A stretch of 64,000 nucleotides of DNA from Hyphomicrobiaceae bacterium. GTDB lineage: Bacteria > Pseudomonadota > Alphaproteobacteria > Rhizobiales > Hyphomicrobiaceae. Within the stretch, counting starts at the first letter, position 1. Every line of letters begins with the position of its first letter. The notes under the pieces were generated by a model. That model saw only the letters and a list, made by a program, of their open reading frames with translations. It did no database searches and was not told the DNA's origin. The stretch is from positions 16,454 through 80,453 of the forward strand of contig JAGRKS010000010.1 in NCBI GenBank assembly GCA_020442185.1. The letters run 5' to 3'. Position numbers and translations under genes: made by a program. Shown piece after piece: positions 2,022-62,123 of the stretch.

Positions 2022-2055
2022 CGTCCCGACCCTCGTTCAAGCGACCGCATCGCGG

Positions 2056-4538: not shown

Positions 4539-4687
4539 AGGCGTCCACGTCCGCGGTTTGAGGCCGTCCGCGGTGTGAGGCCTTCGTGTGACGGCATCGA
4601 ACACGGCGATACGAGCCCGGCGATAATAGGGCGGGAGGTATCGGTTCACGCCGCGGTGCCGTCAGCGACCTTCGGGCTGGCGCCGTC

Positions 4688-6061: not shown

Positions 6062-6092
6062 GACGATGCTCCACAATTGTTGCGGCCACGTT

Positions 6093-8464: not shown

Positions 8465-8552
8465 AGGCGCAGGCAACCCTATCGCTGGTGTGCAATCGCG
8501 TCGCCCGACCTTCAGTCGCGTCGTCAGGACTAGGAATCGTCGAGGCGACAGG

Positions 8553-10004: not shown

Positions 10005-10024
10005 AACGAAATGGAAGCACCGCC

Positions 10025-11776: not shown

Positions 11777-11818
11777 CACCCGCTGGAGGGCCGCAGCGGA
11801 CTCGGCCCGGACGATGCG

Positions 11819-13705: not shown

Positions 13706-13720
13706 CAGGCTGGCCTTGTT

Positions 13721-17978: not shown

Positions 17979-18024
17979 TCCTGTTTCTTCGGTGCGTGAT
18001 CACTGGGCCGCGTCGGCGTCGGGA

Positions 18025-19599: not shown

Positions 19600-19653
19600 G
19601 CCGTCCCGCTGTTGAAGCCAGATAAGCACCGGGCGCCTAGCATGTCTCACCAC

Positions 19654-19917
19654 ACAAAGCTCCTGTGGCGCTGCAAAACAGCCGATGCGTTGTCGCGTCT
19701 GTTCTAATCAATGCCGAAATTGGTTTAGAGGCATCAGCCAAATTGGCGAGCCTAATGCAAAGGAGGTAGGCATTTCGCCCATTATTCTTCTCGCGTCGTC
19801 AGTGTGCATGCCCGGGTTGGCTCTTGCTGTTGACGAAGTCGGTATTGCAGTGCGGTTGCGCGTCGGCTTTCGTGGCTTGAGCACGGATGGATACCGGATC
19901 AAGCCTGCGAGGATGCG
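19654..19917. promoter_or_regulatory. Divergent promoter region between the Wzx/C-T-TE operon and the A-T/megasynthase operon
   Basis: A 264-nt non-coding gap between two divergently oriented long operons. It is relatively AT-rich for this window. No specific -35/-10 boxes or operator could be assigned by eye. Confidence 0.4.
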
Positions 19918-24800: not shown

Positions 24801-27800
24801 CAGCAGGTTCTGAGGCTTCTGGAAAAGCTGTCGGGTGCATCGCTCGATAGCGCGGCACTCGATACCAGCTTCGTCGAGCTGGGCTTCGATTCCCTCTTCC
24901 TCGGCCAGCTTGCGACGGAAGTGAACAAGGCCTTCGGCGTCAAGATCGCGTTCCGCAAGCTGCTGCGCGAGTATCCATCGGCGACGGCACTGGCGGCGCA
25001 TCTTGCTGCGACGCTGCCCGCTTCGGCTGCGCCCCCGCCAATCGCCGCGGATGGCGGTGCCGCGCCCCTTGCACCAACCGCACCTGTTGCCCAGGCCGTC
25101 GCTGTCACAGCGACCGCGCCTGTCGCTGTGAACCCGAATGCGACGGCGACCGTGACGCTGCAGAAGGCGCCGCAGCCGATCGAGAGCGCGGTTCCCGGCG
25201 CGGCTTCGAGCAGTCTCATCGAAACCGTGCTGCGCGATCAGATGACTGCCATGCAACAGCTGATGTCGCGGCAACTCGACCTTCTGCAAGGCACCGACTT
25301 ACGCCAGAGCGCTGCTGTCGCGGCAACGCCACCCGCAGACGCCCGGCCTGTCGCGACGAACGTCGAAGCGGGCTCGCCGCATGCAACGACGTCGCCGGCG
25401 CCCGCGGTCCAAGTGATTTCCAGCGGCGATGCAGGCGGGGGAGCGGAACGGTCCCGCTTCGATGCCTACAAGCTCGTCAAGGGCGGCAAGGATACGCGCG
25501 GGACGACGCCGGCGCAGGAGAAATTCATCAGCAGTCTCATTCAGCGCTACAACGCACGGACCGCGTCGTCGAAGAGCTTCACGCAGCAGCATCGCAAGGT
25601 GCTGGCTGATCCGCGCACAGCCAATGGCTTCCGCTCCGAGTGGAAGGAGATGGTGTATCCACTTGTCTGTCCGCGATCGAAAGGCTCGAAGATCTGGGAC
25701 CTCGATGGGAACGAATACGTCGATCTCGTCAACGGCTACGGTCCGATCGCCTTCGGGCACGCACCGGAGTTCGTAACCAAGGTCGTCGCGGAACAGCTCG
25801 AGAAGGGATTCGCGATCGGTCCGCAAAGTCCGCTTGCGGGCGAGGTTGCCGACCTCTTCGTCGAGATGACGGGCAATGAGCGCGTCACGTTCTGCAATAC
25901 GGGTTCGGAAGCCGTGATGGCCGCGATGCGTCTGTCCCGCGCTGTGACTGGGCGCTCGCGCATCGTCACTTTTGCGGGGGCCTATCACGGCCAGTTCGAC
26001 GAAGTGATCGTCAAGGGTAATCCGAAGGGCCGCGCGCCGGGTGCCAACCCGGCGGCCTCGGGCATTCCGCCCGAACTTGTCTCCAACATAATCGTGCTGC
26101 CTTACGGCACGCCCGAAAGCCTCGAATTCATCCGCGCGCACGCAGGCGACCTCGCCGCCGTATTGGTCGAGACGGTGCAAAGTCGGCGACCCGGCTTCCT
26201 GCCCGAGGCGTTCCTTCGCGAACTCAGGGAGATCACCGCCACGTCGGGTGCCGCTCTGATCTTCGACGAGGTCGTGACGGGCTTCCGCGTGCATCCAGGT
26301 GGCATGCAGAGCTATCTCGGCATCCGCGCTGATCTCGCGACCTACGGCAAAGTGGTTGGCGGCGGCCTTCCGGTCGGCGCACTCGCGGGCAAGGCCGAAT
26401 TCATGGATGCGCTCGACGGCGGCCATTGGCAATACGGCGATGATACGGTGCCCGAGGTTGCGCCGACATTCTTCGCTGGCACATTCGTGCGGCATCCGCT
26501 CGTTCTGGTTGCGATGAAAGCGGTGCTCGAACATCTCAAGGCCGAAGGACCGGCGCTTCAGGAACGATTGGCCGAGCGCACGCGCGGCCTCGTCGGCGAT
26601 ATCCGCGCGGCCTTCGCGCGGCGTGGCATCAACGCAAGCATCGAAACGTTCAGCAGCTATTTCCATATCGACCTTTCAGGCTGCGGCCCGCTTGCGGCGC
26701 TGTTTTATCCGCTCATGCGGCTCAACGGCATTCATATGCAGGAAGGTTTCCTCGGATTCCTGACGACAGCGCACAGCGATGCGGATCTGGCGCTTATCGT
26801 CAGAGCTGTCGAGCGCAGTCTCGACGAACTGGTCGCGGCGGGGATCCTCGGCGCCGGTGATGTGGGTGCAGTGGCTTTGGCGGCACCCGCAACCACAACG
26901 AAACCGAAACCGGCAATGGAACCGGCACCGGCCGCGGCTGCGCTTGCGGCCACGGCCTGCGACGAGTGCGATGCAGCGCTGCCAGTCGAGCAGGTGGTGC
27001 CGCTGACGGAGGTGCAGCGTGAGATCTGGATGGCGGCGCAGATGGGCGATAGGGCGTCGTGCGCGTTCAACGAATCGGCGAGTCTCCGGCTCGAGGGCGC
27101 CGTGGACGTCGACGTGCTCATCGAAGCCGTCAATGATGTGGTCGGTCGGCATGACGCGCTGCGCGCCAGCTTCGGCGCGACCGGCGAGCGCATGCGTGTC
27201 GCCTCGGCCGTGCGTCTCGACGTCGCGCTCGTGGATTTCTCCCGCGCGCCTGATCCGCAAGCAGACTTCGCGGCGCTGATCGCAGCGGATGCCGCAACGC
27301 CGTTCGATCTCGCGAATGGCCCGTGTGCGCGTGCGATTGTCGTCAAGGTGTCCGAGACGCAGAGCATTCTCGTCTTCACGGCACACCACATCGTCTGCGA
27401 CGGCTGGTCCATGAACATCATCATGAGCGAGCTTTCGTCATTCTACGATGCGCGCAAACGTGGTTCGACGGCAGCCCTTGCGCCGGCACTGTCCTATTGC
27501 CGCTACGCGCGCGATGAGGCTGCGAAGGGTGGTGCCGACGCGGATGTCGAAGCCTTCTGGCTCGAGCAATACAAGACGGTTCCTGCGTGGCCGGAACTGC
27601 CGAGCGACAGGCCGAGACCAGAGCGGCGCACCTACGGTGGGGCGACGTACTGCGATCAGATCGACCGGGATCTCTATCGGCAGGTCAAGCAGGCCGGCGC
27701 GCGGGAAGGCTGCACGCTGTTCGTCACGCTGTTCGCGGCGTTCCAGGTCTTGATAGGGCGGCTAGCACAACACGACGACGTCGTTGTCGCCGTGCCCATG

Positions 27801-47948: not shown

Positions 47949-49406
47949 TCAGCCAACGAGCTTTGCGACACTGCTCAACGTCAGTGCGTCGAGGCCGTCG
48001 ACATGAAGGTCGCCACGGCGCTTCACGATCGAGTCGTCGTCGCGCAGCAGGAGGTTGAGAAGCGTGCCCGCGACCAGCGTGCCTCCGACTGGTCCCAGTC
48101 GGCCTCCGAATGCCTCGGCTTCTGCCAGCACATAGAACCATAGAGGCGTCTGGTCGAGTTGGGCGTCGATGACCTTTTGATGCTTGTCGATTGGGTGGAC
48201 GCCGAGGGCTTCCGCCACGACCTCGCCATAGGGCAGCCGGAAGGTTTGCTGACCACGCTGCATGTTCCGGAAGGGCAGCGAAACCGGACCGCCGTCGGCG
48301 ACACGATCGGGGAGGTTGAGGAGCGTGTCGGCGATGCGGGTGTCGATCTGGCGGGCGAATTGCACCTTGCCGTCGCCGTGGTCGAAGAAAAGATTCCAGT
48401 CGATGTTGTGGTCGGCCGGCACGGCCTGGAAGCCTCCGAGGTCGAACAGGCGGACGCGCCGAGATGCGTTGACCATGTAACTGCCGCGCACCTGCGAATG
48501 GCCAAACCGAAACGCCGCCGCGGAAAATTCAAAGGGCATGTCGGGCGCTTCGTCCCAATTGTACGGGCCGGGCAGCTTGCCATTCCAGAAGCCTTCGAGA
48601 AGCGGACGGAGAACGTCGCCGTCGACGATCGCCGGCAGGTAGTCATCGACGATTATGCCCTGGTAGACGTCGCGAACCTTTCGCTGCGCGCGAGCGAAGT
48701 GCTCCGCGGTCGGGTCGCTTCCGCCCGTCATGTCGTCCAGGATGAAATTGTGCAGTCGCAGGAACAGGCCATGGAGCTGCGAAATGAACAAATTTTCGTC
48801 ATTGCGAGGGTCGCCGATCAACGCGACGTCGGCGTTGTTGCGGGGAAGGTCGCGTGGATTGCTGCTGGTTCCCGCCACGAGGTGAAAGCGCCGGTCGTAG
48901 AGGAAGGGGAACATGCCGGGGCCGCTTCGATAGACGGAATCGAGTTCGAGGCGCGGCGTGCGGAAGTTCGGGAGCTCCTCGTCGTTTTGTTCCGTTATGC
49001 CGAGCTTGCTGATCGTTTCCAGCGTAAGGTCATGATCGATGAACTGGCCAAGAAACGTCATGCCGGCTGGTATGGAGCTGAGGCCGCTGGCGTCGTCCTG
49101 CTGCTCGCGCATGGCATTGGCAAGTGCGGCGAGTTTCTCGTCGCTCGGCTGTTCTTCCTGCCGCGGGAACATGCGTCCGAACACGTGCTCCGTTGCTCTC
49201 AGCTTCGCCACGGTTCGAGGATCCGATGTCTCTGCTGCCTCGATTTCAGGCCGGTCAGGCTTCAAAATTCCCTGCAGCCTTTCGAGAAAGGCGCCGTGTC
49301 CATTCGACATATCGAACAACTCCATTCGGTTATAGTGCAACGGGCGTGGGCTGGCCATCGCAGACGGAAGCTGATGCCGCCGCGCCGAAGAAATCGTGTG
49401 TTTCAA
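47949..49406 (-). CDS. Animal-haem-peroxidase (peroxidase-cyclooxygenase) superfamily protein, short bacterial form
   Basis: 485 aa. FLGQFIDHDLTLE (distal His region) and SAAAFRFGHSQV (proximal His region) are signature motifs of PF03098-type peroxidases. The start could be one of several in-frame ATGs. Confidence 0.85.
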   Translation of the reverse strand: MKHTISSARRHQLPSAMASPRPLHYNRMELFDMSNGHGAFLERLQGILKPDRPEIEAAETSDPRTVAKLRATEHVFGRMFPRQEEQPSDEKLAALANAMREQQDDASGLSSIPAGMTFLGQFIDHDLTLETISKLGITEQNDEELPNFRTPRLELDSVYRSGPGMFPFLYDRRFHLVAGTSSNPRDLPRNNADVALIGDPRNDENLFISQLHGLFLRLHNFILDDMTGGSDPTAEHFARAQRKVRDVYQGIIVDDYLPAIVDGDVLRPLLEGFWNGKLPGPYNWDEAPDMPFEFSAAAFRFGHSQVRGSYMVNASRRVRLFDLGGFQAVPADHNIDWNLFFDHGDGKVQFARQIDTRIADTLLNLPDRVADGGPVSLPFRNMQRGQQTFRLPYGEVVAEALGVHPIDKHQKVIDAQLDQTPLWFYVLAEAEAFGGRLGPVGGTLVAGTLLNLLLRDDDSIVKRRGDLHVDGLDALTLSSVAKLVG

Positions 49407-49796: not shown

Positions 49797-50507
49797 TTGT
49801 TGGTTGATGATCGAAGTCGATTGGCGGAAATTCCGCTGTTCGCCGGAGTCGACCCTCTCGTCGTCGGCGAAATTGCCAACCTATTTTCTGTCCGCGATTA
49901 CGCGGCCGGAAGTGAAATCGTCCGCCACCTCGAAGATGACACCGACGTCTATTTCGTTCTCGCCGGCCGGGTTAAGGTCCGGATCTATTCCTGCCAAGGA
50001 CGGATTGTTGCATTCCGTCAGATTGAATGCGGCGAAATTTTCGGCGAGTATGCGGCCCTCGACGGGACGCCACGATCCGCGAGCGTCGAGGCGGAAATCG
50101 ACACACGTGTGGCGGTGCTGAGCGCGGCGGATTTCAATGCGATCGTTGCTGGGCATTCCTCGATCGCGCAGGCTCTCATCCAGCAACTGGTCAAGCAGAT
50201 CCGGGACTTGACAGTGCGCTATTCGGAGCTTTCGACACTGGCCGTCAACGGCCGCATCGAAGCGGAGTTGCTGCGAATTGCGCGACACGACGGCCAGACG
50301 GTCCAGGCGGAGCCCAACAAGATCCTGATCAAGACACCGCCGACACAATACGAGCTTGCCAACCGGGTCAGTACGCATCGCGAGGCTATCAGCCGCCACT
50401 TGAGCCACCTGAGCAGAATTGGACTGATCCGGCGGACGCGACACGCGCTGGTCATCGAGGATATGCAGCGCCTGCAAGAGATGGTTCAGCGGTCCGGTGC
50501 CGATTGA
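49797..50507 (+). CDS. Crp/Fnr-family transcriptional regulator
   Basis: 236 aa with a TTG start. cNMP-binding-like domain: IPLFAGVDPLVVGEIANLF...GEIFGEYAALDG. C-terminal HTH: ELANRVSTHREAISRHLSHLSRIGLI. No N-terminal Cys cluster, so it is not an FNR-type O2 sensor. Confidence 0.9.
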   Translation: MLVDDRSRLAEIPLFAGVDPLVVGEIANLFSVRDYAAGSEIVRHLEDDTDVYFVLAGRVKVRIYSCQGRIVAFRQIECGEIFGEYAALDGTPRSASVEAEIDTRVAVLSAADFNAIVAGHSSIAQALIQQLVKQIRDLTVRYSELSTLAVNGRIEAELLRIARHDGQTVQAEPNKILIKTPPTQYELANRVSTHREAISRHLSHLSRIGLIRRTRHALVIEDMQRLQEMVQRSGAD

Positions 50508-50818: not shown

Positions 50819-51116
50819 TTCAACCGTTGTGGCATGGAGCCTTTTCGGAAACGTGCGGTGTGGACGACTGTTGATGTGGTGACGCCCTGCCTGACCACAC
50901 CTCAGGCAGGGCGGATCCTTTGATTTCGATGGGGTTGCAGTTTTAAAAATGTGCCGGTTCAAAGCCGCTTCGAAAAACTGCTTCGAGGTGGGGCCTGCCG
51001 CACGGAAAATCCGCTTCGCGGCACTTCGACTGCCGGTAAGCGTGCGATTGCGGTTCCAGGGAATGGGCCCTAAGGTTTTCGCCCAGGGGAGCTGTTGCGT
51101 GGTGGAGGGTGGTCGC

Positions 51117-52823
51117 ATGAGCTTCGTGGCACGGAATTCCATTCTGCTCGCGCGTAGCTTCTGCGTGGCTATATGTCTTTTGGCCATCGGGCCTGGCAAG
51201 TCGGTTGCCGACGACGTGAAAAGTTCGGTTGTCGACACCGATCAAGGGCAAGCCTGGACCAGGGAACTGCGCGAGCAGTTCTACAGTCTCGACCAGGGCT
51301 CGCGCATCATTCCGCTCAGCTGGTTGATGGCGCTGAAGCTGCCGGATGGTCGCGATTTCCTCCACGACAACTTGGCGCGCTACGGATATCTGCCCGCCGA
51401 CAAGGGACTCTATCGACTACCGATCGGCTTCACGGCAGCGGGACCGTTCGGCGAGGAAATGGTCGGCATGACGTGTGCGGCCTGCCACACGCGGCAGATT
51501 TCAGCCGGTGGGCGGACATTTCGCGTCGATGGCGGGCCGGCCTTCGCCGACTTCCAGGCCTTCGTCGCCGATCTCGACACGGCGGTGCGGAGGGTGATCG
51601 ACGACCCGCATGCCTACAAGGCGTTTGTCCGGGATGTGTTGGGGCCGAACGTCGGGACGGCAACCGAGGACAAGCTGCGCTGGTCACTCAGTCAGTGGTA
51701 CTACCGTTTCCACACGCTGATGGAAGGCTCTCTGCCCCGGAACGTCAAATGGGGCGCTGGCCGGCTGGACGCCGTTGCCATGATCTTCAATCGTCTGACA
51801 GGGCTCGACCTCGGGCCGGCGCCACACTTCATTATTGCTGACAATATCGTACCCGCCACCGCACCTGTCCGCTATCCGTTCCTTTGGAACACGCACCGCC
51901 AGGAGGTCGTCCAGTGGACCGGCATCGCCGACAACAAGACGCCTTTGCGTGTCTTGGCGCGTAATGTCGGGCAAGCATTGGGGGTGTTTGCCGAATTCGT
52001 TCCAAAGAAATCCCTGCAGCCGAATGGCGACTACGTTTTCGATCTCTTTGCTGTCAACTCCATCCAATTCGGCAACCTCAAGAAGCTCGAAAAGCTGATG
52101 TGGGCCATCGGCCCGCCCAAGTGGCCGTGGCCAGTCGATCAGGAGCTTGCCGAACGCGGCGCGCGAATTTTCGGTGTCGCGTGTGCCGGCTGTCATGGCG
52201 CACGAGAGGTGGGAGGGTTCTGGGAAACCAACGTATATGTGGTGGGGACAGATCGCAGCGCGGTCCGGCTGCTCCTGCGAGACGTCGATACCGGGGTCTT
52301 TGCCGATGCCGGTTTTGCCCGGCGCGAACCAGCCGCAAAGGTTCTGCAGCTGACCGCGGGTGCACTGGCCGCGTCTTCGGAGCAGCGTGACGACAGCAGA
52401 ATGCAGATCCTCGCCGGTCCGTCGCAGCTGCGTACGCTGGAGGTCAATCTGCAGTTGCTGCGCACCAATACGCCACCGCCACCTGACGCTGCAGGGCCTC
52501 GTCAACGTCAGCCCGGTGGGTACGTGGCGCGCGTCCTGCACGGTGTCTGGGCGGCGGCTCCCTTCCTGCACAATGGCTCCGTGCCGACGCTCAGGGATCT
52601 ACTGAAGCCTCCGGATGAGCGCCCGGCAGAATTCGCGGTCGGCGCTGACTACGATCCCGTTGCAGTCGGTCTGGCGGCCAAGCAGTCGGGGCGCGCGACA
52701 ACGATGACCACGACGGGGTGCCACGATCTCGATTCGGGCAACAGCCGTTGTGGACATGCATTCGGAACCGAGCTTTCTCCAAGTGAACGGGATGCTTTGA
52801 TTGAATACCTGAAGACGTTGTAA
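51117..52823 (+). CDS. Secreted di-haem cytochrome c, CCP/MauG/RoxA-like
   Basis: ORF track gives 50949..52823. ATG 51117 opens a signal peptide (MSFVARNSILLARSFCVAICLLAIGPG). Two CXXCH motifs (CAACH, CAGCH) and APFLHNGSVPTLRDLL, which is typical of the bacterial di-haem peroxidase superfamily. Confidence 0.8.
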   Translation: MSFVARNSILLARSFCVAICLLAIGPGKSVADDVKSSVVDTDQGQAWTRELREQFYSLDQGSRIIPLSWLMALKLPDGRDFLHDNLARYGYLPADKGLYRLPIGFTAAGPFGEEMVGMTCAACHTRQISAGGRTFRVDGGPAFADFQAFVADLDTAVRRVIDDPHAYKAFVRDVLGPNVGTATEDKLRWSLSQWYYRFHTLMEGSLPRNVKWGAGRLDAVAMIFNRLTGLDLGPAPHFIIADNIVPATAPVRYPFLWNTHRQEVVQWTGIADNKTPLRVLARNVGQALGVFAEFVPKKSLQPNGDYVFDLFAVNSIQFGNLKKLEKLMWAIGPPKWPWPVDQELAERGARIFGVACAGCHGAREVGGFWETNVYVVGTDRSAVRLLLRDVDTGVFADAGFARREPAAKVLQLTAGALAASSEQRDDSRMQILAGPSQLRTLEVNLQLLRTNTPPPPDAAGPRQRQPGGYVARVLHGVWAAAPFLHNGSVPTLRDLLKPPDERPAEFAVGADYDPVAVGLAAKQSGRATTMTTTGCHDLDSGNSRCGHAFGTELSPSERDALIEYLKTL

Positions 52824-52891
52824 TAAAATCGGGCACAAGCTCTGAACATCTGTGTGCGGTCAATATTTCGTCGCGCGCACTTTGGGTGGAC

Positions 52892-55800
52892 ATGCCTATT
52901 CCAGGGTTCGATGCGAGCACGAGCGGACCGCCTTTGACCGGGCGTCAAAGGCGTTTTCTGGTCGTCATGTTCGCCGATCTTTCGCATTCGACACGGCTGT
53001 CGGCCGAGATGGAGGCCGAGGACTACGCCGAACTGCTCGATGAGCTTCGCGCGAAATACGATCATGTCCTCGAGCGACATGGCGGCATGGTCTTTCGTGT
53101 GCAAGGTGATGGCCTGCTTGCGTGCTTCGGCTACCCGAATGCCAGGGAGGATGACGCGCGAAGAGCCGTCGAAGCAGCACTTGAACTGCATCAGGCTGTC
53201 GCGACGCGCAACCCTGACGGCCGCCGCTTGTGTCTGCACACCGGCATCCATGCCGGGCTCGTATTGCTGGCGCCGGGGGACGATGTCAGCGGCCGGCTCG
53301 TGCTGTTCGGTCAGGCCGTCAACATTGCAGCGCGCCTGGCAGATGTGGCGTTGGACGACGAGATCCTCGCAAGCCAGGATTCGCTCGGGGCGGAATGTCA
53401 CTTTTTCGAGACCGACGCCGGCCGGGTCCTGAGCCTTCCGGATATCGACAAGCCGATTGCGGTCTGGAGCATCCGCAAGAAGGCCAATGTCGCAAATCGC
53501 TTCGAGGCCCGTTCTCTGCGCGGGTTGACGCCGTTCGTCGGACGCCACGACGAATTGCGCCGTCTCGGGAGTCGCATGGACGCGGTCGTGAGTGGCTCGG
53601 CGCATTACCTGGCAATTTCGGCTCCGCCCGGGCAGGGAAAATCGCGATTGGCAGATGAGTTCATTTCACGCCTGGATCACGATCGCATTCACGTCCTCCG
53701 CGGCTACTGCGAGAGCTATCTGAGCGCCCCGCCCCTGCAACCATTCCTTCAGATGCTGCGGTCGATTTGCAGGATCGAATACAGCATGTCGGCCGCCGAC
53801 GCCCGGGAAGCGGTTCGGCGAACGCTGGCGCAGATCAGTCCATCCCTGACCCATCATGCTCCCTCGTTGTTCGCCGCATTGTCCTACGAGAGTTCGACGG
53901 AGGGTGAGGAGGGGGGCGGTGCGCAACAGGCGAGCGTCGCAAGCGGAGCGGCGTTCTCGGCGCTCTTCGATGCACTTGCTCTAGAGCGGCCGTTGTTGAT
54001 TTTCATCGACGACTGGCAATGGGCTGACGATGCGACGCGGCAGCTGTTGGCAGGAATCCGCGGCCGAATAGAACGTTCGATCTGCGTCGTCGTGGCGACT
54101 CGGCTCGTCAACTTCGAGGGCGTGGAACTGGCCGGTGCGGAACGCATTTCGCTGAAACCTCTTCGTGACGAGGAGTCCGACGCAACGATCAAGACACTGC
54201 TGCAGTCGGCAAACACGTTCGAAATTTCACAGATCCGCGAAGAAGCAGGCGGGAACCCCTTGTTTCTGGAGGAACTGTGTCATTCGGCATCGCAGCGCAT
54301 GCCGCGCCATCAAGCCACGGGGACGAGTGGCGCATCGGCATGGCTCAGCAGGCTACTTGCAGCGCGCGTTGAGCGCCTCACGACCGAGCATCGCGATATC
54401 GTGCGCACGGCTGCCGTCATTGGCAACGTCATACCTGCAAGGGTTCTCGAGATCGTGTCGGGTGCGTCGGGCCTCCAGGCGACGATGTGCGAACTGTCGA
54501 ATCTTGATGTCATACATCCAGCAGAGCAGCTTGGGATGTATCGTTTCAAACATGGGATTGCGCGCGAGGCGATCTACGAGACGGTTGGTGCGCGTGAACG
54601 CCAGATCCTGCACTTGCGGATTGCCGAGGCCCTCGAGGGATTGGCCGCTCTCGGGCAAACGGAGTTGTTACACGAGCAATTGGCCTATCATTATGCCGCG
54701 GCCGCCCGATGGACAGAAGCCGCGAAATATTCCGAACGCGCCGGGGACAAGGCCATCGCGGCCTCGGCGCTCGATCGTGCGCAGGCCCAATATCAAGCTG
54801 CCCTCGACGCACTGGGCCGCACAGAACTGACCCAAGAGAATTACGTGAAGTGGCTCATGATCGCGCGCCGCCTGGGTCTCGTTTGTGTTTTCGACCCATC
54901 GGCAGAGCATCTCGATGTCCTCATGCGTGCGATTGAAGTGGCCAGGCGTTTCAACGATGAAAATGGCTTGGGGCACGCCGAATACTGGGTCGGGTATGTC
55001 TATTACGGGCTCGGCGACTTCAAGCGTGCGACCATGCATCTCGAAGTCGCCCTGGCGCGGGCGCAGCGGCTCGGAGATGCCTCCCTCATGAAGTGGTGCG
55101 GCGCAACTCTCGGGCAAGCGTATGCCGCGGCGAGTCAGTACGACCGCGCGTTGGACCTGCTCGGCCAGGCCATCGACGAAAAGCGACGCCAGAAGCGCAT
55201 GACGAGGCCGGCCGTCGGGTATGCCTATTCGCTCGCGTGTCAGGCATCAGCCTTGGGTGACCGCGGCGAATTCGACGCCGCGGCGGAGTGTTTCCGGGAG
55301 GCACTACAGGCGGTCGAGGGGGCCGGACACGAAGTCGAGGGATCGATCTGCTGCTGGCAGAGTGGCGTGCAGCTCTGGCAGGGGCGGTGGCAGGATGCGT
55401 TGGACAGTTCGCGGCGCGCCCAACGTGTCGCCGAGCGCGTCAAGAGTCTCTACCTCTATGCAATGAGCCGTTCGCTCGGCGGATATGCAAGTTGGAAGCT
55501 CGATGGCCGTTCGGATGCGCTGCAGACGATCCTGGAATCCACAGCCTGGCTGGAGCGCGCAGGCAAGGCCCTGTTCATTTCCCTCAACTATGGCTGGCTC
55601 GCCGAGATCCTTGTTGCCAATCGCCTGCAGCATGCCGGACGGCAGTATGCCGCGCGAGCGCTCGGGCGCATCCGTAGTCATGACCGCATCGGTGGTGCGA
55701 TGGCGTTCCGGGCGATGGCGCAGGCCGCAGCCTCAGGCCGCTACCATAAGACATCAGAACACTATTTGAGGTTGGCGGCGGAGAATGCCGCTTTGCGTCA

Positions 55801-56014
55801 GTCGCCACACGAAATCGTGGGCAACGCCATGTGCGCGGCAGAAATCTTGTCGAATGCGGGGGAAGTCGCCCGGGCGCGCGAACACTATGAGCAAGCTCTG
55901 TACCTTTCGAATAGGCTCGGAATGACGTGGCATGCTGAATTGGCAAGCGCGCATTTGAACGGACATTTGCGCCAGATAGCAGGGCTTCCAGCACCGGTCG
56001 CCAAGCCGCTCTAG
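52892..56014 (+). CDS. Class III adenylate/guanylate cyclase domain - AAA/STAND NTPase - TPR-like repeat protein
   Basis: Cyclase domain: RRFLVVMFADLSHST, FRVQGDGLLACFGYP. P-loop: ISAPPGQGKSRLADEF. The long C-terminal part is helical repeats. GTG 52886 or ATG 52892 could be the start. Confidence 0.9.
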   Translation: MPIPGFDASTSGPPLTGRQRRFLVVMFADLSHSTRLSAEMEAEDYAELLDELRAKYDHVLERHGGMVFRVQGDGLLACFGYPNAREDDARRAVEAALELHQAVATRNPDGRRLCLHTGIHAGLVLLAPGDDVSGRLVLFGQAVNIAARLADVALDDEILASQDSLGAECHFFETDAGRVLSLPDIDKPIAVWSIRKKANVANRFEARSLRGLTPFVGRHDELRRLGSRMDAVVSGSAHYLAISAPPGQGKSRLADEFISRLDHDRIHVLRGYCESYLSAPPLQPFLQMLRSICRIEYSMSAADAREAVRRTLAQISPSLTHHAPSLFAALSYESSTEGEEGGGAQQASVASGAAFSALFDALALERPLLIFIDDWQWADDATRQLLAGIRGRIERSICVVVATRLVNFEGVELAGAERISLKPLRDEESDATIKTLLQSANTFEISQIREEAGGNPLFLEELCHSASQRMPRHQATGTSGASAWLSRLLAARVERLTTEHRDIVRTAAVIGNVIPARVLEIVSGASGLQATMCELSNLDVIHPAEQLGMYRFKHGIAREAIYETVGARERQILHLRIAEALEGLAALGQTELLHEQLAYHYAAAARWTEAAKYSERAGDKAIAASALDRAQAQYQAALDALGRTELTQENYVKWLMIARRLGLVCVFDPSAEHLDVLMRAIEVARRFNDENGLGHAEYWVGYVYYGLGDFKRATMHLEVALARAQRLGDASLMKWCGATLGQAYAAASQYDRALDLLGQAIDEKRRQKRMTRPAVGYAYSLACQASALGDRGEFDAAAECFREALQAVEGAGHEVEGSICCWQSGVQLWQGRWQDALDSSRRAQRVAERVKSLYLYAMSRSLGGYASWKLDGRSDALQTILESTAWLERAGKALFISLNYGWLAEILVANRLQHAGRQYAARALGRIRSHDRIGGAMAFRAMAQAAASGRYHKTSEHYLRLAAENAALRQSPHEIVGNAMCAAEILSNAGEVARAREHYEQALYLSNRLGMTWHAELASAHLNGHLRQIAGLPAPVAKPL

Positions 56015-56039: not shown

Positions 56040-57242
56040 CTAGGAAGCTGCTACAGGCTCCATCAGTCCGGTGATGGTCCCGAGCATGATCGCGATTGCG
56101 GCCTCGTAGCCGGGACAGGCATGGGTCGGATGGTGGCGAGCGCTTCTGTCACCTCCAAAGACGACGAAGACGTCTGTCTTGCCACTTTCGAGGTCGGAGG
56201 CTGTCACGGAAGCGATGTCGACGACGACCTGATCGCCTGTCCGGACGTTCTCGTCGCCGAGGGTATGATCGCTTGTTGCCGTTCGCCAGACTTCTGGCGG
56301 CATTGGCCGGCCTTGTATTGCCTGGAACATCGGTTCGGCCAGCGCGGCATAGGCCCGTTCGTATCCATTGTTGCCCGGGTGAGCGCTCAATGCGTTCTGC
56401 AACCGCGTGAAGGTCGCCCCGCCCTGCGCCCGCCAGGCCGCGAGGACAAACTTGAGATTGAAATAGGTGGTGGGCAGCATGCCCATCATGACGCCGACGA
56501 TACTGCGTGCGATGAGGTCGTCGTCGCCTTCGGGGTAGGCCTCGAATACCGCGCGTGAGACAATCCCCTTGGGCTTTTCTCCCTCGCGTCGCAAGCGCGC
56601 GATATAGCTGGCATGAGAGTCGCGCAGGATGTGCCCAATCGATCGCGCGTCTTCGGACATGAGCTTGTCGCCATCGGCGTAGAACATGCAGGCGGATGGA
56701 ACGCCGTAGTCTGCGGGACACAATGCTGGCGGCTGCGGCGGCGTGCTGGTCCTTCCGCCACCCTCGACAATCTCGACGCCATCGGGAAGATCGAACCACA
56801 GTGTGCACATGTGCGCCAGCACCGACACGATGACGGCTTCATCGATTGCGCCCGGCGCGGCTTCCAGTTTGCCTCGCGTGGCGTCGAGCGATTGTCTGAA
56901 CGCTTCGTCGGCGGACAGTGCCTGGATCGCGATGTTGATTTTGGTGGCCTGGCGGTCGTATTCGTCCCCCTTGTCCAGACCGAGGTAGATCTCTCCGAAC
57001 AGCTGGCGTGCGCGTTCGTTGTAGCCGCGGACCGAGTAGACCGCATCGGCGTCGGCCAGGACCTTGTTGGCGAGGTCCTTGGTGCGCGCGTGGATGCGCT
57101 TGTTGGCGCGCGCGCTTTCAACCGAGGCCTGGACTGGCACGGCGCGACTGAGGGGATGCGCTTGCGGTTCGCAGCCGTGGGTCACCGCATCCTCGAGGCA
57201 GAGGCGAATGAACTCGTCAACGCTGTTGTTCTGGTGTGGCAT
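56040..57242 (-). CDS. Cytochrome P450-like (haem-thiolate-like) protein with an extended Cys-ligand loop
   Basis: The maximal ORF runs to 57317. ATG 57242 has AGGTGA upstream. The C-terminal FGGDRSARHHPTHACPGYEAAIAIMLG resembles the P450 FxxGxxxCxG loop with about 7 extra residues, and VGVMMGMLPTT may be the I-helix. The family call is tentative. Confidence 0.5.
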   Translation of the reverse strand: MPHQNNSVDEFIRLCLEDAVTHGCEPQAHPLSRAVPVQASVESARANKRIHARTKDLANKVLADADAVYSVRGYNERARQLFGEIYLGLDKGDEYDRQATKINIAIQALSADEAFRQSLDATRGKLEAAPGAIDEAVIVSVLAHMCTLWFDLPDGVEIVEGGGRTSTPPQPPALCPADYGVPSACMFYADGDKLMSEDARSIGHILRDSHASYIARLRREGEKPKGIVSRAVFEAYPEGDDDLIARSIVGVMMGMLPTTYFNLKFVLAAWRAQGGATFTRLQNALSAHPGNNGYERAYAALAEPMFQAIQGRPMPPEVWRTATSDHTLGDENVRTGDQVVVDIASVTASDLESGKTDVFVVFGGDRSARHHPTHACPGYEAAIAIMLGTITGLMEPVAAS

Positions 57243-57470: not shown

Positions 57471-58919
57471 TCAGGTCCGGCAATGCCTGTCGAGCGTTCG
57501 AGTGGACACGCCACTACACCACGTTCTCAGCCGCGAGCACGCAGCGGTGATCGGCAATTCCAGGCACTCGCGCGAACTCGGCCCCTTCCCACAAGCGCGC
57601 GCCTGATCGTTGACGATCTGCTCCTGCTCCAGACATTCCGTGCGTCGTTCGGTGTCGCAGCCCTGTGTCAGAAGTTTTTCGACATTCTTGAAGGTCTGGG
57701 CCTCGAACGCTTGATCGTCCTTCTTGCGGAAAGCGCAGTTGTAGAAATTATAGTGCAGCCGCATCGGCCTATATAGCTCGCGACAGATTTTTGCGGCGAA
57801 GCAGTGTCCCGTCAGCGCACACGTGGCGGTGTCGTGCATGCGCATGCTCAATTTACGAACCGGCTGAATGATGTGGTGCTGTTCCAGGAAGGGGCGAATG
57901 GCGTCGCAATGCGATTTGCCGGTGTCCTGTCGGAATTTCTTGAACATCTCGTATCCACCCTGGTCGCTGAAAAAGGCCGCTTCTCGCGCGTTGTGCTCGA
58001 TATCGGCCGAGGCGGCGTGGAGCTTCTGGTCGGTGATGTAGAGCCGGTAAGCCTCGTAGATGCCGAACAGGACGAGCGTGGTCAGGATCGTGGCGAAGAC
58101 ATAGGAGGACCTGCGCCGGAAGCGATCGATCGTTCGGTAGAGCCCGGCCTCGACCGACCAGAGAAACGTTCGCCATCTGCCGAATTCGCCGACATCGTGG
58201 AGCGCTGCGATGCTGCGGACCGAATAGGCCAGAATGACGTTGCTCAGATGCAGATAGATGTCCGGTGCGACGCCACGGATCTGGATTCCGGCAACACCGC
58301 CGGCGCTCGCGGAACATAGTCCTGCGCCGCTGAAGCCGTGGTCGTTGGCCTGATCGCTCGAAAGATGCAGCAATTCGACGTTGTCGGCAGGGTTCGGCTT
58401 GAAGGTGCCGATCAGCTTCGCATCGGCAGGTGTCAGGTTGGCGAGCGCCTGGCTGAAGCCCCAGATCCTGAAATTGCCGTCCTGCCGCTTCAGGAGGCTG
58501 ACAGGGAGAAATGTCGGCGGTCTTCGCAATTTGAGTTTACAGAGCGCGAAGTCGACAAAGGAAGCTCTGTCATAGCCAAATGCCAGAACGTCGAAATCAG
58601 CGTTGACGAAGGGTTGCTCATGATCACCTTCGCCGGGGAGAACGGCGTGGAAATTCGTTGCGATCCATTTCTTGGTGCTGGTTTCGTCAGCCGCGGCGCC
58701 TTGCCAGTCGGGGTCGTTGGCAAAGATATGGAAGCAGCTGATGAAGTGCCCTTTCGGTGAGATTGCGACGGCGGATGCGCTTTTCCCCGTGCGCTTGCTC
58801 TCCAGCTTGAATGTCGCGGCCCGATGGCGTTCGTCGAGAAGGTTTGGAAGTGGCAGTCGCAGGCGTATGCGCTTCCATAGGTCCATGATGGCGCGGGGCT
58901 GCGGGATGGGGGTGGGCAT
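57471..58919 (-). CDS. Trypsin-like serine protease domain - single TM - Cys-rich C-terminal domain protein
   Basis: 482 aa with no signal peptide. The N-terminal about 230 aa carries a His (HFISCFHIF), an Asp (DFDVLAFG) and a GxSG-type Ser (DHGFSGAGL) in chymotrypsin-fold order. TM: YVFATILTTLVLFGIYEAYRLYI. The C-terminal about 190 aa has about 14 Cys. The start lies 9 nt after the upstream stop. Confidence 0.7.
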   Translation of the reverse strand: MPTPIPQPRAIMDLWKRIRLRLPLPNLLDERHRAATFKLESKRTGKSASAVAISPKGHFISCFHIFANDPDWQGAAADETSTKKWIATNFHAVLPGEGDHEQPFVNADFDVLAFGYDRASFVDFALCKLKLRRPPTFLPVSLLKRQDGNFRIWGFSQALANLTPADAKLIGTFKPNPADNVELLHLSSDQANDHGFSGAGLCSASAGGVAGIQIRGVAPDIYLHLSNVILAYSVRSIAALHDVGEFGRWRTFLWSVEAGLYRTIDRFRRRSSYVFATILTTLVLFGIYEAYRLYITDQKLHAASADIEHNAREAAFFSDQGGYEMFKKFRQDTGKSHCDAIRPFLEQHHIIQPVRKLSMRMHDTATCALTGHCFAAKICRELYRPMRLHYNFYNCAFRKKDDQAFEAQTFKNVEKLLTQGCDTERRTECLEQEQIVNDQARACGKGPSSRECLELPITAACSRLRTWCSGVSTRTLDRHCRT

Positions 58920-58928
58920 GGCAAGCCC

Positions 58929-59333
58929 TCATCGCGCCGATGGTGCAGCCGTGCCACCGGCCCAGCAACAGCTCTTGTCGGTGCGCGTGCAGCAATCAAT
59001 TTCGATCTGCATTCTGGAACCCGCTCCGTCGAGTGGCTTCGCGATCGGCTCTCCGATTTTGTCCGAGACGATGTTGGAGTGGCCGGTCTCCTTGTCCTTG
59101 GCGGCCGGTGTCTGGATAGGGCTCTTGTCCTTCTTTATGACCTCGGCTTGGGCAAGCCGGCGCGACTGATGAGAGCCGCTCTTGGCGCATTCGCTTCCCC
59201 GGCCAGGGCCCGAGGGGGGCGTCGCACAGGACAGACAATGTGCAGTCGCTGGGAGGAGGGGCGCTTTGGCGTCAGCGGTCGGCGCTGCAAGGACAAAGAA
59301 AATCGCCAGTACGATTTGCATTTCGACGGACAT
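58929..59333 (-). CDS. Small secreted Cys-rich protein (about 134 aa precursor)
   Basis: ATG 59333 is preceded by GGAGGTG. Signal peptide: MSVEMQIVLAIFFVLAAPTADA. The mature part has 8 Cys, including HCLSC and DCC...SCC clusters. Confidence 0.6.
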   Translation of the reverse strand: MSVEMQIVLAIFFVLAAPTADAKAPLLPATAHCLSCATPPSGPGRGSECAKSGSHQSRRLAQAEVIKKDKSPIQTPAAKDKETGHSNIVSDKIGEPIAKPLDGAGSRMQIEIDCCTRTDKSCCWAGGTAAPSAR

Positions 59334-59456
59334 AGGGGTCACCTCCGTTCGCGAGCGCTTCAGGTCACTTGAATGAACCGTCTTGCGCAACTGTCGAGAC
59401 GTTCGCTACACGCTTCTCGGCTGGGTAGAATAGCTGTCGTTTCGATCGGAAAGACA

Positions 59457-62123
59457 CTAGCGGAGCATCACGAACAGGGCTTGCGCATCGAGCATCCCGA
59501 ACCCGAATCCAGAGTTATGGCGTCCATTCACGCCCATGGCCGTGCGGCACAGGGCGGCCCGCAACTGGCGCGCATTGTACTGAGGCCGGTTCGGTGCTTG
59601 CGGATGTCTGTGAGACAAGACGAGTGCCAGCGCCCCGGTCACATGAGGCGCCGCCATGCTGGTGCCAGGGAAGGCGATGGTCGCACGGTGATCGTCGGTA
59701 TTCGCGAGCGCCGCTTCGATGTGTGCCCCCGGCGCGCAGACGTCGGGCTTGGCTCGGCGGTCGCGGGTCAGGCCATATGAAGATACATTGATGAGACGGA
59801 GCGGCAAGGACGAATGACACGCGCCGACGGTGATCACGGTGTCGGCCGTCCCCGGCACGCTCAGCGTCATGTCCTCGTCGGGGATCGTGAATTTCAATGC
59901 CCTGTCATTGGTGCGTTCGATCCACAGGTCAACGCGCGGTGATCCGCTTCTCACGAGCGTTCCCTCGATGTCCAGGCGCCAACGGCCGCGCTGGATCTCT
60001 CGGCTGCCAGGCACGATCGTGATGACGACACGACTGTCGCCGTTATCGGGATGCAAGGTCGTCATGCGCAGACGGCAGACGTTACCGCCGAGCGAGGCAC
60101 GAATGTCGGGGGTCGTTGCGGACAAGGTGGCGGATTGATCGCCGGACGGGGCCGTCAGTTTGAATTCCAGTTCGTCGAGGCCGTCATACCAGACCTCGAT
60201 ATAGTCCTCGAAGCGATCGATATCGAGCGAATCCCATTCGACTGGCTGCGACGCAAGGAAGGCGTCGATACGGGCATGCCCTGCATGTCCGCGCTCGTTG
60301 CCCGCCGACTTGACGATGACAAAGCCAGGGTCGCGGCCGTTGCCGGAGAGCGCATCGAACATTCCCTCGAGGATCGAAGTCCCGTCGTGCGCGCCGGCAT
60401 TCATGCCCAGGCTGACATTTACAGCGATCGGACGCCGCTCGGCGAGAACGGTATTACCGCCCGACGCCGCGGACTTCAGAAAGTGCAATGCATCGACATG
60501 GCTGACGGAGTAGCCGAGGCTCGGGGGGTCGCCAGGCCGCGTCTTCGTGTCGGGAACGACTGCGATGATCGATGCGTCGGGTGCAACGCCGTCACCAAGT
60601 GTGCCGACAGCACGACCTGCGGCGATGCTGGCAACGTGGGTCCCATGCTGCAAGGGGTCACGCAACGAGAGGCGGGGCACGGCACCTTGCGCGATGAATT
60701 TCGCAATATCCCTTTGCGTGTAGACCGTCCCGAAATCCTGGGTGAAATGCGCCGGATCGAGGGCGTGCGGCGAGGGACCCGTCTTGTCGTTCTGAATCCA
60801 GACAGCGAGTATGCGGGAGTTGCCTTCGCCGTCGAGAAAGGCCTCGTGCAGAACGTCGATGCCGGTGTCGATGAGGCCGACGATTGCATTGCCGCCCCTC
60901 TCGTCGATCGGTGGACGGTGGAGCGGGTCGGCCTTGACGAACGGGATCGAGCGCGTCAACTCCTCGGAGCCGCCATCCCGGCTCGCCTCGACCGACATCA
61001 CGCTTGCGTCCTCCCGCAGCGCCTGCAGCGCGCTCTTGGGAGCCTGGATGGTCGCGTAGTTGCCGAACCTGGAATTCACCCGGATCGATGCGGGGGGGCG
61101 CCAATTCTGGTCGCGAAGCCGGACCAGGGCGGGCATCAATTCGCTGTCGACGGAAAGCTCGACCGTATTGCGATCGAATGCCTCGATTGCATTTTCCGTT
61201 GCGAAACGATGTAGCTTGCGGTTCTCGTTCTGGATCAGGAAGACGGGGTCGATGCTTTCTCCCCTCTCGGTTGCGAGCCTGCTGATGATGGCGACGTAGC
61301 GGGAGATCCTGTGGCTGACGAGGCTGGGGTAAAGACCTTCGACACTGCGATCCAAGGCATCGTCGGAAAATTCCAGCCCGCTTGTCCTGAACGCCGTCTC
61401 GACTGTCCTGATGTCGACCTTGAGTTTCTCGAACTCGGCCTGGTTCATGGCAGGCTGTGCAGCGGGGACGCCGCCGTCCACTTCAACCGCCGCACGCTTC
61501 AGAAGGCCCGTGCCGTCGAATTGCATCAGTTTTCCGACATGTTCGAAGCCGGGTGGCACCCGCGTCACGAGGTCGGTATCGTTGACGAAGCGCCGGAAGC
61601 GCGTGCCGAACGAGGCATCGAAATGCTTCTGCGTGGAGAGGTCACCCAGACGCGGCTGGCCGAACGTGTGGACGCCCGACAGGGCACCGGCCTCGGCGAA
61701 CTCGCCGGCGGTCAGAGCCGCCAATGCGCCACCCAGACTGTGACCAGTCAGCCAGATTTTACGTTTGTCACGCACCGCTCTCTCGATCGCGGCACCCGTT
61801 AGGTCGCGAACGAGATTAAGGGCCGAGAAGAAGCCGGCATGGATCGATCCATAGGGTCGTTCCACCCAGGAAATGTTCAGATTGCCAAGCCAGTCCGCAA
61901 TGCTGTCCGTTCCGCGGAAGGCCACGAGCAGGACCTGATCGTTTTCAGCGATGAAACCCTGGGTTCGCCCGACGTTGAAGATCCGCGTATCGGAAAAGCC
62001 CCAGCTTGCAGTGGTTCGCTTGACGGCACTGTCGTCGTCGTAGGCCACCTTGCTCGCAACCGCCAACGATAGTGCCGTGTGCCAGGAAAAGTCTTCGAAC
62101 TGCAATGATTTGATTTTGAACAT
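59457..62123 (-). CDS. Fusion protein: N-terminal class 3 lipase (alpha/beta hydrolase) + C-terminal subtilisin-like S8 peptidase, no signal peptide
   Basis: 888 aa. Lipase_3: VAFRGTDSIADWLGN, LTGHSLGGALAALTA, FVNDTDLVTRVP. S8 triad: VGLIDTGIDVLH (Asp), HGTHVASIAAG (His), GTSMAAPHVTGALAL (Ser), with oxyanion Asn in NVSLGMN. A beta-rich insert lies between His and Ser. Confidence 0.9.
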   Translation of the reverse strand: MFKIKSLQFEDFSWHTALSLAVASKVAYDDDSAVKRTTASWGFSDTRIFNVGRTQGFIAENDQVLLVAFRGTDSIADWLGNLNISWVERPYGSIHAGFFSALNLVRDLTGAAIERAVRDKRKIWLTGHSLGGALAALTAGEFAEAGALSGVHTFGQPRLGDLSTQKHFDASFGTRFRRFVNDTDLVTRVPPGFEHVGKLMQFDGTGLLKRAAVEVDGGVPAAQPAMNQAEFEKLKVDIRTVETAFRTSGLEFSDDALDRSVEGLYPSLVSHRISRYVAIISRLATERGESIDPVFLIQNENRKLHRFATENAIEAFDRNTVELSVDSELMPALVRLRDQNWRPPASIRVNSRFGNYATIQAPKSALQALREDASVMSVEASRDGGSEELTRSIPFVKADPLHRPPIDERGGNAIVGLIDTGIDVLHEAFLDGEGNSRILAVWIQNDKTGPSPHALDPAHFTQDFGTVYTQRDIAKFIAQGAVPRLSLRDPLQHGTHVASIAAGRAVGTLGDGVAPDASIIAVVPDTKTRPGDPPSLGYSVSHVDALHFLKSAASGGNTVLAERRPIAVNVSLGMNAGAHDGTSILEGMFDALSGNGRDPGFVIVKSAGNERGHAGHARIDAFLASQPVEWDSLDIDRFEDYIEVWYDGLDELEFKLTAPSGDQSATLSATTPDIRASLGGNVCRLRMTTLHPDNGDSRVVITIVPGSREIQRGRWRLDIEGTLVRSGSPRVDLWIERTNDRALKFTIPDEDMTLSVPGTADTVITVGACHSSLPLRLINVSSYGLTRDRRAKPDVCAPGAHIEAALANTDDHRATIAFPGTSMAAPHVTGALALVLSHRHPQAPNRPQYNARQLRAALCRTAMGVNGRHNSGFGFGMLDAQALFVMLR

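Follow-up and report, generated by a model that had tools for sequence, protein, structure and literature searches.

Genes at the locus

A stretch of 64,000 nucleotides (nt) from a Hyphomicrobiaceae bacterium (GenBank assembly GCA_020442185.1, contig JAGRKS010000010.1, positions 16,454 to 80,453), in the following called the window, contains four genes, A, B, C, and D, which are all encoded on the minus strand. The subject of this analysis is the pair formed by B and C and its possible coupling to A. Gene A (59457..62123, 888 amino acids (aa)) encodes a predicted cytosolic fusion of a Lipase_3 and a subtilase (S8) domain, which is proposed to be an effector zymogen. Gene B (58929..59333, 134 aa) encodes a protein with a signal peptide, a low-complexity middle part, and a C-terminal CC-x6-CC tag (CCTRTDKSCC). 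Gene C (57471..58919, 482 aa) encodes a protease with an HtrA/DegS fold, followed by a transmembrane (TM) helix and a predicted periplasmic, all-helical, Cys-rich domain. Gene D (56040..57242, 400 aa) encodes a P450-like candidate and is probably a fourth member of the operon. The same genes were called independently on two metagenome contigs with identical DNA (ENA WANG18-1 scaffold_982 and k141_90280). In an earlier reading of the DNA made from its letters alone, here called the sequence-only reading, A, B, and C were proposed to form a three-gene module. The three co-directional minus-strand open reading frames (ORFs) are all present where that reading had placed them, including the start of C 9 nt past the stop of B, and A is separated from B by a gap of 123 nt. 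With D, which had been overlooked, the module has at least four genes.

Gene A is matched by the Pfam models Lipase_3 (E 6e-27, residues 67-191) and Peptidase_S8 (E 5e-32), and its Lipase_3 domain also matches the alpha/beta hydrolase clan. The lipase part extends over residues ~1-280 and is followed by a conserved linker with a putative subtilase prodomain (~300-400) and a Csp-like S8 domain (~400-888). In an alignment of 25 family members the lipase residues S129 (within GHSLGG), D184, and H271 are invariant, as are the subtilase residues D419, H496, N609, and S822. H271 is located in a conserved motif ~87 residues past D184 and is taken as the catalytic histidine of the lipase by analogy with fungal class-3 lipases. 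Between D184 and H271 the family has a variable insertion, which is suggestive at most of an excisable fragment. No hydrophobic segment or signal peptide was found at the N-terminus, the best 15-residue Kyte-Doolittle mean within the first 60 residues being 0.87. Pfam, the alignment, and hydropathy agree with the earlier description of an 888-aa protein with intact lipase_3 and S8 catalytic sets and without an export signal.

The S8 half of A has the NCBIfam model CspBA as its top match, and its top PDB matches are Csp germination proteases. Residues 410-880 align to PDB 9sj6_C (chain 23-456, E 2e-40). With the Csp subtilases CspB, CspA, and CspC, A shares this alignment of ~470 residues including the Csp-specific insertion, the catalytic triad, and the lack of a signal peptide. 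In contrast to the clostridial Csp proteins, A is proteobacterial, carries an N-terminally fused lipase, and scores far under the family cut-offs (170 bits versus 1250 for CspBA and 96 bits versus 675 for CspC). Csp subtilases autoprocess and retain the bound prodomain. Because the S8 domain of A is Csp-like, A may likewise be made as a zymogen.

At least 273 homologues of A with 40-59% identity, mostly full-length, are found in Alpha-, Beta-, and Gammaproteobacteria, and the Lipase_3-S8 architecture is kept in more than 100 of them. Two homologues carry extra domains, namely a TIR domain (PF13676) in P0092 (1305 aa) and a full set of EF-Tu GTPase domains (PF00009, PF03144, PF03143) in P0087 (1343 aa), and these additions are reminiscent of conflict-system architectures. 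A genome scan seeded from A was dominated by generic Csp-like subtilases and yielded one extra full-length A locus (L003). A metagenome scan was dominated by stand-alone lipases and yielded one further A locus (L092), in which the homologue seems to be split into two ORFs and which is not used as evidence. In the plasmid collection, A had matches at the level of the S8 domain only. IMG/VR viral contigs (L176-L255) very commonly encode stand-alone class-3 lipases that are 28-40% identical to the lipase domain of A (more than 470 confirmed stretches), and none of the matches listed for these contigs is by identity a lipase-S8 fusion of the A type.

The protease domain of C (residues ~36-240) is matched by Trypsin_2 with E 5.6e-5 and 24.3 bits, which is under the Pfam gathering score of 27.6. 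An AlphaFold2 (AF2) model computed with nine family members as input (mean predicted local distance difference test score (pLDDT) 73) consists of a beta-rich domain (36-233), a long helix (248-318), and an all-alpha C-terminal domain. Foldseek matched the model to DegS, DegP, HtrA, and Rv3671c with a probability of 1.0, the E value for the DegS/HtrA fold being about 3e-7. The residues H64, D123, and S197 are invariant in the alignment of these nine sequences (A3). A single hydrophobic helix is located at residues ~271-287. The fold matches, the invariant triad, and this helix support the chymotrypsin-fold protease with one TM segment that had been proposed for C. The chymotrypsin fold and the H-D-S triad are shared with the HtrA/DegS proteases (S1C), which differ from C in having PDZ domains and acting in the periplasm. 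No PDZ domain was matched by Pfam in C, no signal peptide was found, and a cytosolic location is predicted for the protease domain.

The hydrophobic helix of C is flanked by five K/R residues upstream and two downstream. Every family member has one such helix, and an upstream excess of K/R residues is present in eight of nine, the exception being P0121 with two on either side. Hydrophobic helix and charge bias fit a topology in which the protease would be cytosolic and the Cys-rich domain periplasmic and disulfide-bonded, and they are consistent with the protease-inside orientation suggested by the sequence-only reading. The Cys-rich domain after the TM helix is present as described there, with 12 Cys counted instead of about 14. 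Six of the predicted periplasmic Cys (C367, C373, C379, C421, C429, and C443) are invariant among the nine aligned members, which are ~21-41% identical, and the Cys-rich C-terminal extension (432-482) is clade-specific.

The C family is very rare. Word-index searches with the single sequence or with a nine-sequence profile recovered essentially nothing, and an exhaustive HMMER search was required to find 30 matches among 1.84 billion representative proteins. One of the 30, P0121 (41% identity), is a full-length relative. Seven matches of 373-403 aa have the protease and the TM helix in common with C, along with the initial portion of its periplasmic domain, and the remainder match C in the protease domain only. 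The full architecture is common to only about 9 proteins. All clusters at 90% identity are singletons, and one member is annotated (WP_353022559.1 of Mesorhizobium sp. M0998).

Gene D has no Pfam match even at E 10 and no NCBIfam match. In a PDB search, five of seven weak matches (E 0.18-1.7) were P450s, and these were colinear with D. Candidate P450 motifs are an I-helix-like G250-x-x-x-G-x-x-x-TT259, a K-helix E317-x-x-R320, and F362-G-G...C376-P-G. The ExxR motif (E317/R320) and FGG...C376-P-G are kept in D and in its orthologue at locus L083, which is 62% identical. A single-sequence AF2 model had a pLDDT of 38 and was unusable. According to the motifs and weak structural matches, D is probably a divergent protein with a cytochrome-P450 fold. 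It is co-directional with A, B, and C, and in L083, a syntenic relative of the window locus, its start overlaps the stop of the C orthologue by 4 nt, indicating translational coupling. D is therefore likely to be the fourth member of the operon.

Tagged partners and second proteases of the C family

The start codon (ATG) of B is preceded at a distance of 6 nt by GGAGGTG, and the N-terminus of the protein contains a signal-like hydrophobic segment ending with ADA. Thus, both the signal peptide and the strong ribosome-binding site noted earlier are seen, and the number of Cys is 7 and not 8. At all seven C-family loci a secreted protein ending with CC-x6-CC is encoded directly upstream of the C-family gene. 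In the window this gene is B, which ends with ...IDCCTRTDKSCCWAGG..., and in L083 it encodes a secreted protein of 117 aa ending with ...LDCCRPGRLTCCFDIRQ. B and this counterpart are not alignable outside the tag. In more distant relatives the partners are related to periplasmic binding proteins (PBPs). In L091 from Mesorhizobium, a LivJ-like PBP that ends with CCREGNRSCCPKN takes this place (374 bits to NF011933), in L173 and L175 the partners are Peripla_BP_4 proteins ending with CCTESNKSCCPPPPKK and CCWGRNTGCCPRRK, respectively, and L174 encodes a protein with a weak BP_4 match that ends with CCTKGNKSCCPRQ. The upstream ORF of L172 is truncated and ends with CCTANDKSCCGPK. The partners have signal-like N-termini, and at two of the loci (L091 and L173) the partner gene's stop codon overlaps the start of the C-family gene.

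A scan of the 2.24 Mb of fetched DNA (26,809 stop-to-stop ORFs) found six other C-terminal CC-x6-CC motifs, all in spurious frames of 45-64 codons, and it found the motif in no A-family locus without a C-family gene. With high confidence, B and C are thus regarded as a periplasmic pair, as had been proposed in the sequence-only reading. As all seven upstream partners carry the tag and those of distant relatives are complete PBPs, B is the minimal form of a conserved partner, consisting of signal peptide, spacer, and tag. The tag of B and the domain of C with the six invariant Cys are natural candidates for the contact sites. Because entire ligand-binding proteins of the periplasm carry the same tag in distant relatives, B and C together are interpreted as a sensor. 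C is 40% identical between the window and L083, whereas its neighbors are 59-66% identical. Fast evolution is typical of sensor components, and the fast evolution of C together with the lack of alignable sequence in B outside the tag fits a diversifying sensor.

All six C-family loci for which flanking DNA is available encode another protease within three genes. In the window and in L083 the second protease is the A-type lipase-S8 fusion, while L091 and L173 encode stand-alone S8 proteases of 416-442 aa without a signal-like N-terminus. L175 has a caspase (C14) and an M10-like protease, and L174 an M4 and an M10 protease. The stand-alone S8 proteins form one family with 36-39% identity, which includes an S8 protein of Thiocapsa (L090), its gene being located directly downstream of that of the A homologue. 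The proposed coupling of the pair to a second cytosolic protease is a conserved theme, supported by the S8 genes beside C-family genes in L091 and L173 and by the trypsin-like genes that adjoin A-family genes in L003, L088, and L090. A itself is a facultative partner of the pair, as it is also found alone or with other partners.

The window and L083 share a block of six genes comprising A, B, C, D, a STAND gene with a nucleotide cyclase domain (52886..56014 in the window, plus strand and convergent, 1042 aa), and a gene for a di-haem cytochrome c peroxidase/RoxA-like protein (50949-52823, plus strand, 434 bits). Synteny starts exactly at A, and the DNA upstream of A is unrelated. Other A homologues are found in different contexts. 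A Trypsin_2 protein is encoded in L003 (Paracoccus ravus), EAD1-trypsin and EAD1-trypsin-AAA_16 proteins in L088 (Cupriavidus), a trypsin-HD-CE protein of 1617 aa in L090, and a caspase and OLD-like genes in L089. L084 contains serine recombinases and a DyP peroxidase, and nothing notable was found in L086 and L092. The EAD1, caspase, STAND, and OLD-like neighbors and the TIR-fused A homologues support the conflict-system flavor that the sequence-only reading had ascribed to the module.

A possible outside-in effector module and alternative readings

With confidence that is evenly balanced, the locus is interpreted as an outside-in, proteolysis-gated effector module. After export, B would dock with its tag on the six-Cys periplasmic helical domain of C, probably via a disulfide-stabilized hairpin or via disulfide or metal bridging. 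The trigger would act on the periplasmic side and may be ligand binding, loss of the partner, a redox change, or envelope damage. From there, the signal would cross the single TM helix of C to the cytosolic HtrA-like protease, probably by oligomerization, and the activated protease would cleave A, a putative double zymogen in the cytosol. In its latent state, A may be held by a lipase-prodomain piece clamped on the S8 domain, with the putative prodomain inhibiting the Csp-like subtilase. C may cut in the linker, within the prodomain, or in the variable insertion that lies between D184 and H271 of the lipase. Once released, the lipase would attack lipids of the membrane, and proteins would be attacked by the S8 domain, with growth arrest or cell death in the sense of abortive infection or programmed cell death as the likely outcome. 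D would probably act together with the lipase or downstream of it. Confidence is moderate for A as the target of C and moderate to low for a role in death or defence.

Parts of this logic are known from other systems. In System 3 of Kaur, Burroughs, Iyer & Aravind 2020 (eLife, PMC7159879), trypsin-like peptidases fused to TM segments occur together with a NucA effector to which S8 domains are fused. There, a proteolytic cascade has been proposed to deploy the effector, and the systems are mostly from Alphaproteobacteria and sometimes include EAD1 and STAND-trypsin proteins (PMC7159879). Compared with this description, C is likewise a TM-linked trypsin-like peptidase (Trypsin_2, DegS/HtrA fold, one TM helix), and the S8 domain of A is likewise fused to an effector polypeptide. 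In addition, EAD1 and STAND partners are encoded beside the A homologue of Cupriavidus (L088), and one C-family member is from Mesorhizobium. In contrast to System 3, Pfam and NCBIfam matched neither NucA nor another nuclease in A, B, C, or D, the effector being a class-3 lipase, and Pfam matched no EAD1 in genes of the window, EAD1-trypsin being present only beside the A homologue of L088. In the text of the System 3 paper as searched (PMC7159879), there is no mention of a partner that is secreted, of the CC-x6-CC tag, of PBPs as partners, or of a Cys-rich domain in the periplasm.

Evans et al. 2025 (bioRxiv, PMC12642450) have shown experimentally that alpha/beta-hydrolase, MBL nuclease, Pepco, and EACC1 proteins are latent death effectors, which are licensed when a neighboring protease of the trypsin-like, caspase-like, or S8 type cleaves them at specific sites. 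In these modules, the protease is joined to a cytosolic sensor (STAND/Avs, WD40) that detects phage proteins (PMC12642450). Characteristic of the hydrolase module are a hydrolase of the LcHydrolase family and its activation through two cuts that remove an internal fragment. Similar to the hydrolase module of that study, the locus encodes a Lipase_3 domain belonging to the alpha/beta-hydrolase clan, which is fused to S8 and located two genes from the trypsin-like C. In contrast, C is membrane-anchored with a predicted periplasmic domain and a secreted partner instead of a cytosolic phage sensor, and the hydrolase of A forms one polypeptide with a second protease. Both System 3 and the alpha/beta-hydrolase activated by a protease resemble the logic proposed for the locus. 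The sequence-only reading is largely reasonable in its inference, and its remark that it knew of no described system with this composition was too strong. Literature searches found no description of the domain combination, of a CC-x6-CC module with PBP partners, or of the six-Cys domain, and the motif string occurred in them only in papers on granulin and metallothionein. The general logic is known, and the new element is the sensor, which consists of a CC-x6-CC-tagged secreted partner and a TM trypsin-like protease. The locus looks like a rare variant of protease-triggered bacterial self-destruction or defence systems.

In working principle, the closest analogues are BlaR1 and DegS, neither of which is homologous in architecture. 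The BlaR1/MecR1 proteins consist of an extracytoplasmic sensor, TM helices, and a cytosolic protease domain, the activation of which results in cleavage of a cytosolic target. Their working principle is similar to that proposed for B and C without homology, and they differ in being zinc metalloproteases with a penicillin-binding sensor, in lacking a separate secreted partner, and in having transcriptional derepression as output. DegS is switched on by the C-terminal tails of other periplasmic proteins, which is a conceptual parallel to the C-terminal CC-x6-CC tag. Bacterial gasdermin-protease systems encode a gasdermin beside a protease, and none was found at the window locus. A gasdermin identity was considered for a family of 253-268 aa (see below) and found no support, as PADLOC, Pfam, NCBIfam, and PDB gave no such match for this family or for B, C, and D.

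To our knowledge, the known protease-gated death effectors of bacteria (gasdermins, MBL nucleases, alpha/beta-hydrolases, Pepco, EACC1) are wired to cytosolic sensors. The locus points to a periplasm-facing version, the relatives of which borrow solute-binding proteins via the four-cysteine tail. If this is true, regulated proteolytic pathways of cell death or immunity would acquire extracellular inputs. It would also provide a compact and testable tag-and-receptor pair as well as a function for the widespread, uncharacterized lipase-subtilase family with hundreds of homologues across Proteobacteria. More tentatively, and with considerable doubt, the B-C pair might represent a new class of bacterial transmembrane receptors. 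In such a receptor a secreted sensor, in many cases an entire solute-binding protein, would be docked by its tag on the six-Cys periplasmic domain and would turn on the cytosolic serine protease, which would start a protease cascade and release death or lipid-signaling effectors. The response would then run from outside to inside and be directed to extracellular cues, for instance metabolites set free by lysed kin or an attack on the envelope, and not to phage components within the cell.

Several results weigh against the outside-in effector module. The exact triad of A, B, and C is present in the window and in one other independent locus. The neighborhood conservation of the three genes thus recurs solely in L083, and as D, the STAND gene, and the peroxidase gene are common to both loci as well, the linkage of A to B and C could be inherited. 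In L086, the A homologue stands alone amid housekeeping genes. The S8 domain of A and the stand-alone S8 proteases of C-family loci are only distantly related, and C is not related to the Trypsin_2-type genes found next to other A homologues. Therefore, A and C are associated at the level of enzyme class and not of orthology, which is normal for modular conflict systems, yet weaker than orthologous co-occurrence. A and B are separated by 123 nt and consensus scans at the locus found neither promoters nor terminators, so that the operon structure is putative. The locus is not flanked by mobile-element or known defence genes, and its neighbors include ordinary metabolic genes and a cluster for a hybrid polyketide synthase and nonribosomal peptide synthetase (PKS-NRPS). 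PADLOC matched no system at the locus, its matches being limited to a generic 'subtilase' model (A, E 4e-20) and generic PycC-type cyclase models (STAND protein), and no C-family member was found in the viral contigs or plasmid records searched. Furthermore, the PBP partners point to small-molecule sensing, which is unusual for anti-phage systems.

Some of these results would also be expected if the real unit were the B-C pair, perhaps together with D, with A being adjacent through shared ancestry. A is found without B or C in seven of the nine contexts examined, the A-B gap is much wider than the 9 nt between B and C, and the only two independent loci with A beside B-C share the six-gene syntenic block. 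This explanation is nevertheless unlikely, considering that synteny breaks exactly at the 5' end of A, which makes A the edge of the block, that the other flanked C-family loci all have a protease within three genes (S8 in two of them), and that the four genes are co-directional with no terminator-like site on the coding strand. A ligand-sensing signal transduction system that is not related to conflict was also considered, in which B or the PBP would report a periplasmic nutrient or metabolite, C would process regulatory or metabolic targets similar to BlaR1-BlaI, and A would be a regulated housekeeping lipase/protease. It would account for the bona fide solute-binding proteins of distant relatives (LivJ-like with 374 bits, ribose-type), for a locus amid metabolic genes without integrase or transposase, and for the adjoining cyclase-STAND gene and Crp-family regulator of the cyclic nucleotide monophosphate (cNMP)-binding type. 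Its probability is low, however, as the second component varies among S8, caspase, M4, M10, and lipase-S8, a pattern that conflict systems typically show when effectors are swapped. Moreover, the A family is accompanied by EAD1, caspase, OLD-like, and TIR components, the C family is very rare and patchy with singleton clusters only, and no transcription factor is conserved beside C-family genes.

A further explanation concerns the output and is compatible with the activation mechanism of the proposed effector module. The P450-like D and the haem-peroxidase genes nearby suggest that the lipase may feed an oxidized-lipid signal. In an oxylipin-like pathway of this kind the gated lipase would free fatty acids, which D and the haem enzymes would oxidize into a signal, without cell death. 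In plants and animals, lipid-mediator routes lead from a lipase via a dioxygenase to an atypical P450. The co-directionality of D with C and their translational coupling in L083, the P450-like motifs of D with its weak colinear P450 matches, and the di-haem peroxidase/RoxA-like gene in both the window and L083 are in line with such a pathway. The same applies to a gene of the animal-haem-peroxidase family in the window (47949-49406, minus strand) and to the DyP-type peroxidase after the A homologue of L084 (E 1e-37 to PDB 7anv). It is nevertheless improbable, since the fold of D has neither a Pfam match nor a usable AF2 model, the haem enzymes are encoded on the opposite strand or several genes away, and other C-family modules and most A homologues have no such enzymes. 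Finally, class-3-type GxSxG lipases serve as interbacterial toxins with periplasmic immunity proteins, and A could be an exported antibacterial lipase toxin similar to the Tle effectors of the type VI secretion system, with the secreted B, encoded directly after A, as its immunity protein. This pair was rejected because B tracks C and not A, with no CC-x6-CC protein in A loci that lack a C-family gene, and it is highly improbable also in view of the mostly low-complexity sequence of B, the cytosolic-type Csp-like subtilase carried by A, and the lack of secretion-system genes in the window and around A homologues, as far as their genes were examined.

Neighboring genes and further observations

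The STAND gene had been noted in the sequence-only reading as lying nearby on the opposite strand, which is correct. It starts at 52886 instead of 52892, and according to Pfam its product has an N-terminal class III nucleotide cyclase domain, which had been overlooked, followed by AAA_16 and TPR repeats. An orthologue with 61% identity is found at the equivalent position in L083, and the STAND gene and the di-haem peroxidase/RoxA-like gene are conserved beside the module there. The AAA_16 STAND genes near A homologues in L088 and L090 are not detectably orthologous to the gene of the window. The cyclase-STAND gene may be a linked regulator of the module. Together with the haem-enzyme genes and the gene for the Crp/Fnr cNMP-binding regulator (49797-50507, plus strand), it could form a cNMP-regulated haem-enzyme set that is possibly tied to the lipase.

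No tRNA or integration hallmark was found in the window. The hybrid PKS-NRPS cluster (15291-30185) encodes a KS-AT-aminotransferase-C-A-PCP protein of 2779 aa, a stand-alone A-PCP protein, and a C-PCP-TE protein, and appears to be unrelated to the finding on A, B, and C.

In L003, an apparent operon of five genes (9944-17404) encodes a lipase-S8 protein, an unknown protein of 444 aa, a 253-aa family member, a GDSL lipase, and a Trypsin_2 protein, and it combines two different lipases with two serine proteases. The 253-aa protein belongs to a family of 253-268 aa with 24-49% identity (alignment A5), the other members of which are encoded in L088 (5455-6219), L089 (10658-11422), and L175 (1138-1944), the position in L003 being 14086-14847. 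These genes adjoin lipase-S8 genes in L003, L088, and L089, and in L175 the PBP/C-family module with a caspase and an M10 protease. Searches of Pfam, NCBIfam, PADLOC, and PDB with this family were empty save for a weak SLATT-like match, and the family is a candidate for a protease-activated effector.

In L084 (region 833-10173), the A homologue is 53% identical and has two large serine recombinases upstream, and a giant gene of more than 3455 aa converges on it. The two genes downstream of this homologue had been considered as equivalents of B and C and turned out to encode an unrelated 161-aa protein and the DyP peroxidase. The C-family module of L091, which is located on a plasmid-like contig of Mesorhizobium, is followed by a giant gene as well (more than 3297 aa). 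Many lipase-S8 homologues of A bear the JGI name 'endonuclease G', which is probably an annotation transferred from NucA-S8 fusions of the System 3 kind and hints at a kinship of the S8 halves in lipase-S8 and NucA-S8 fusions.

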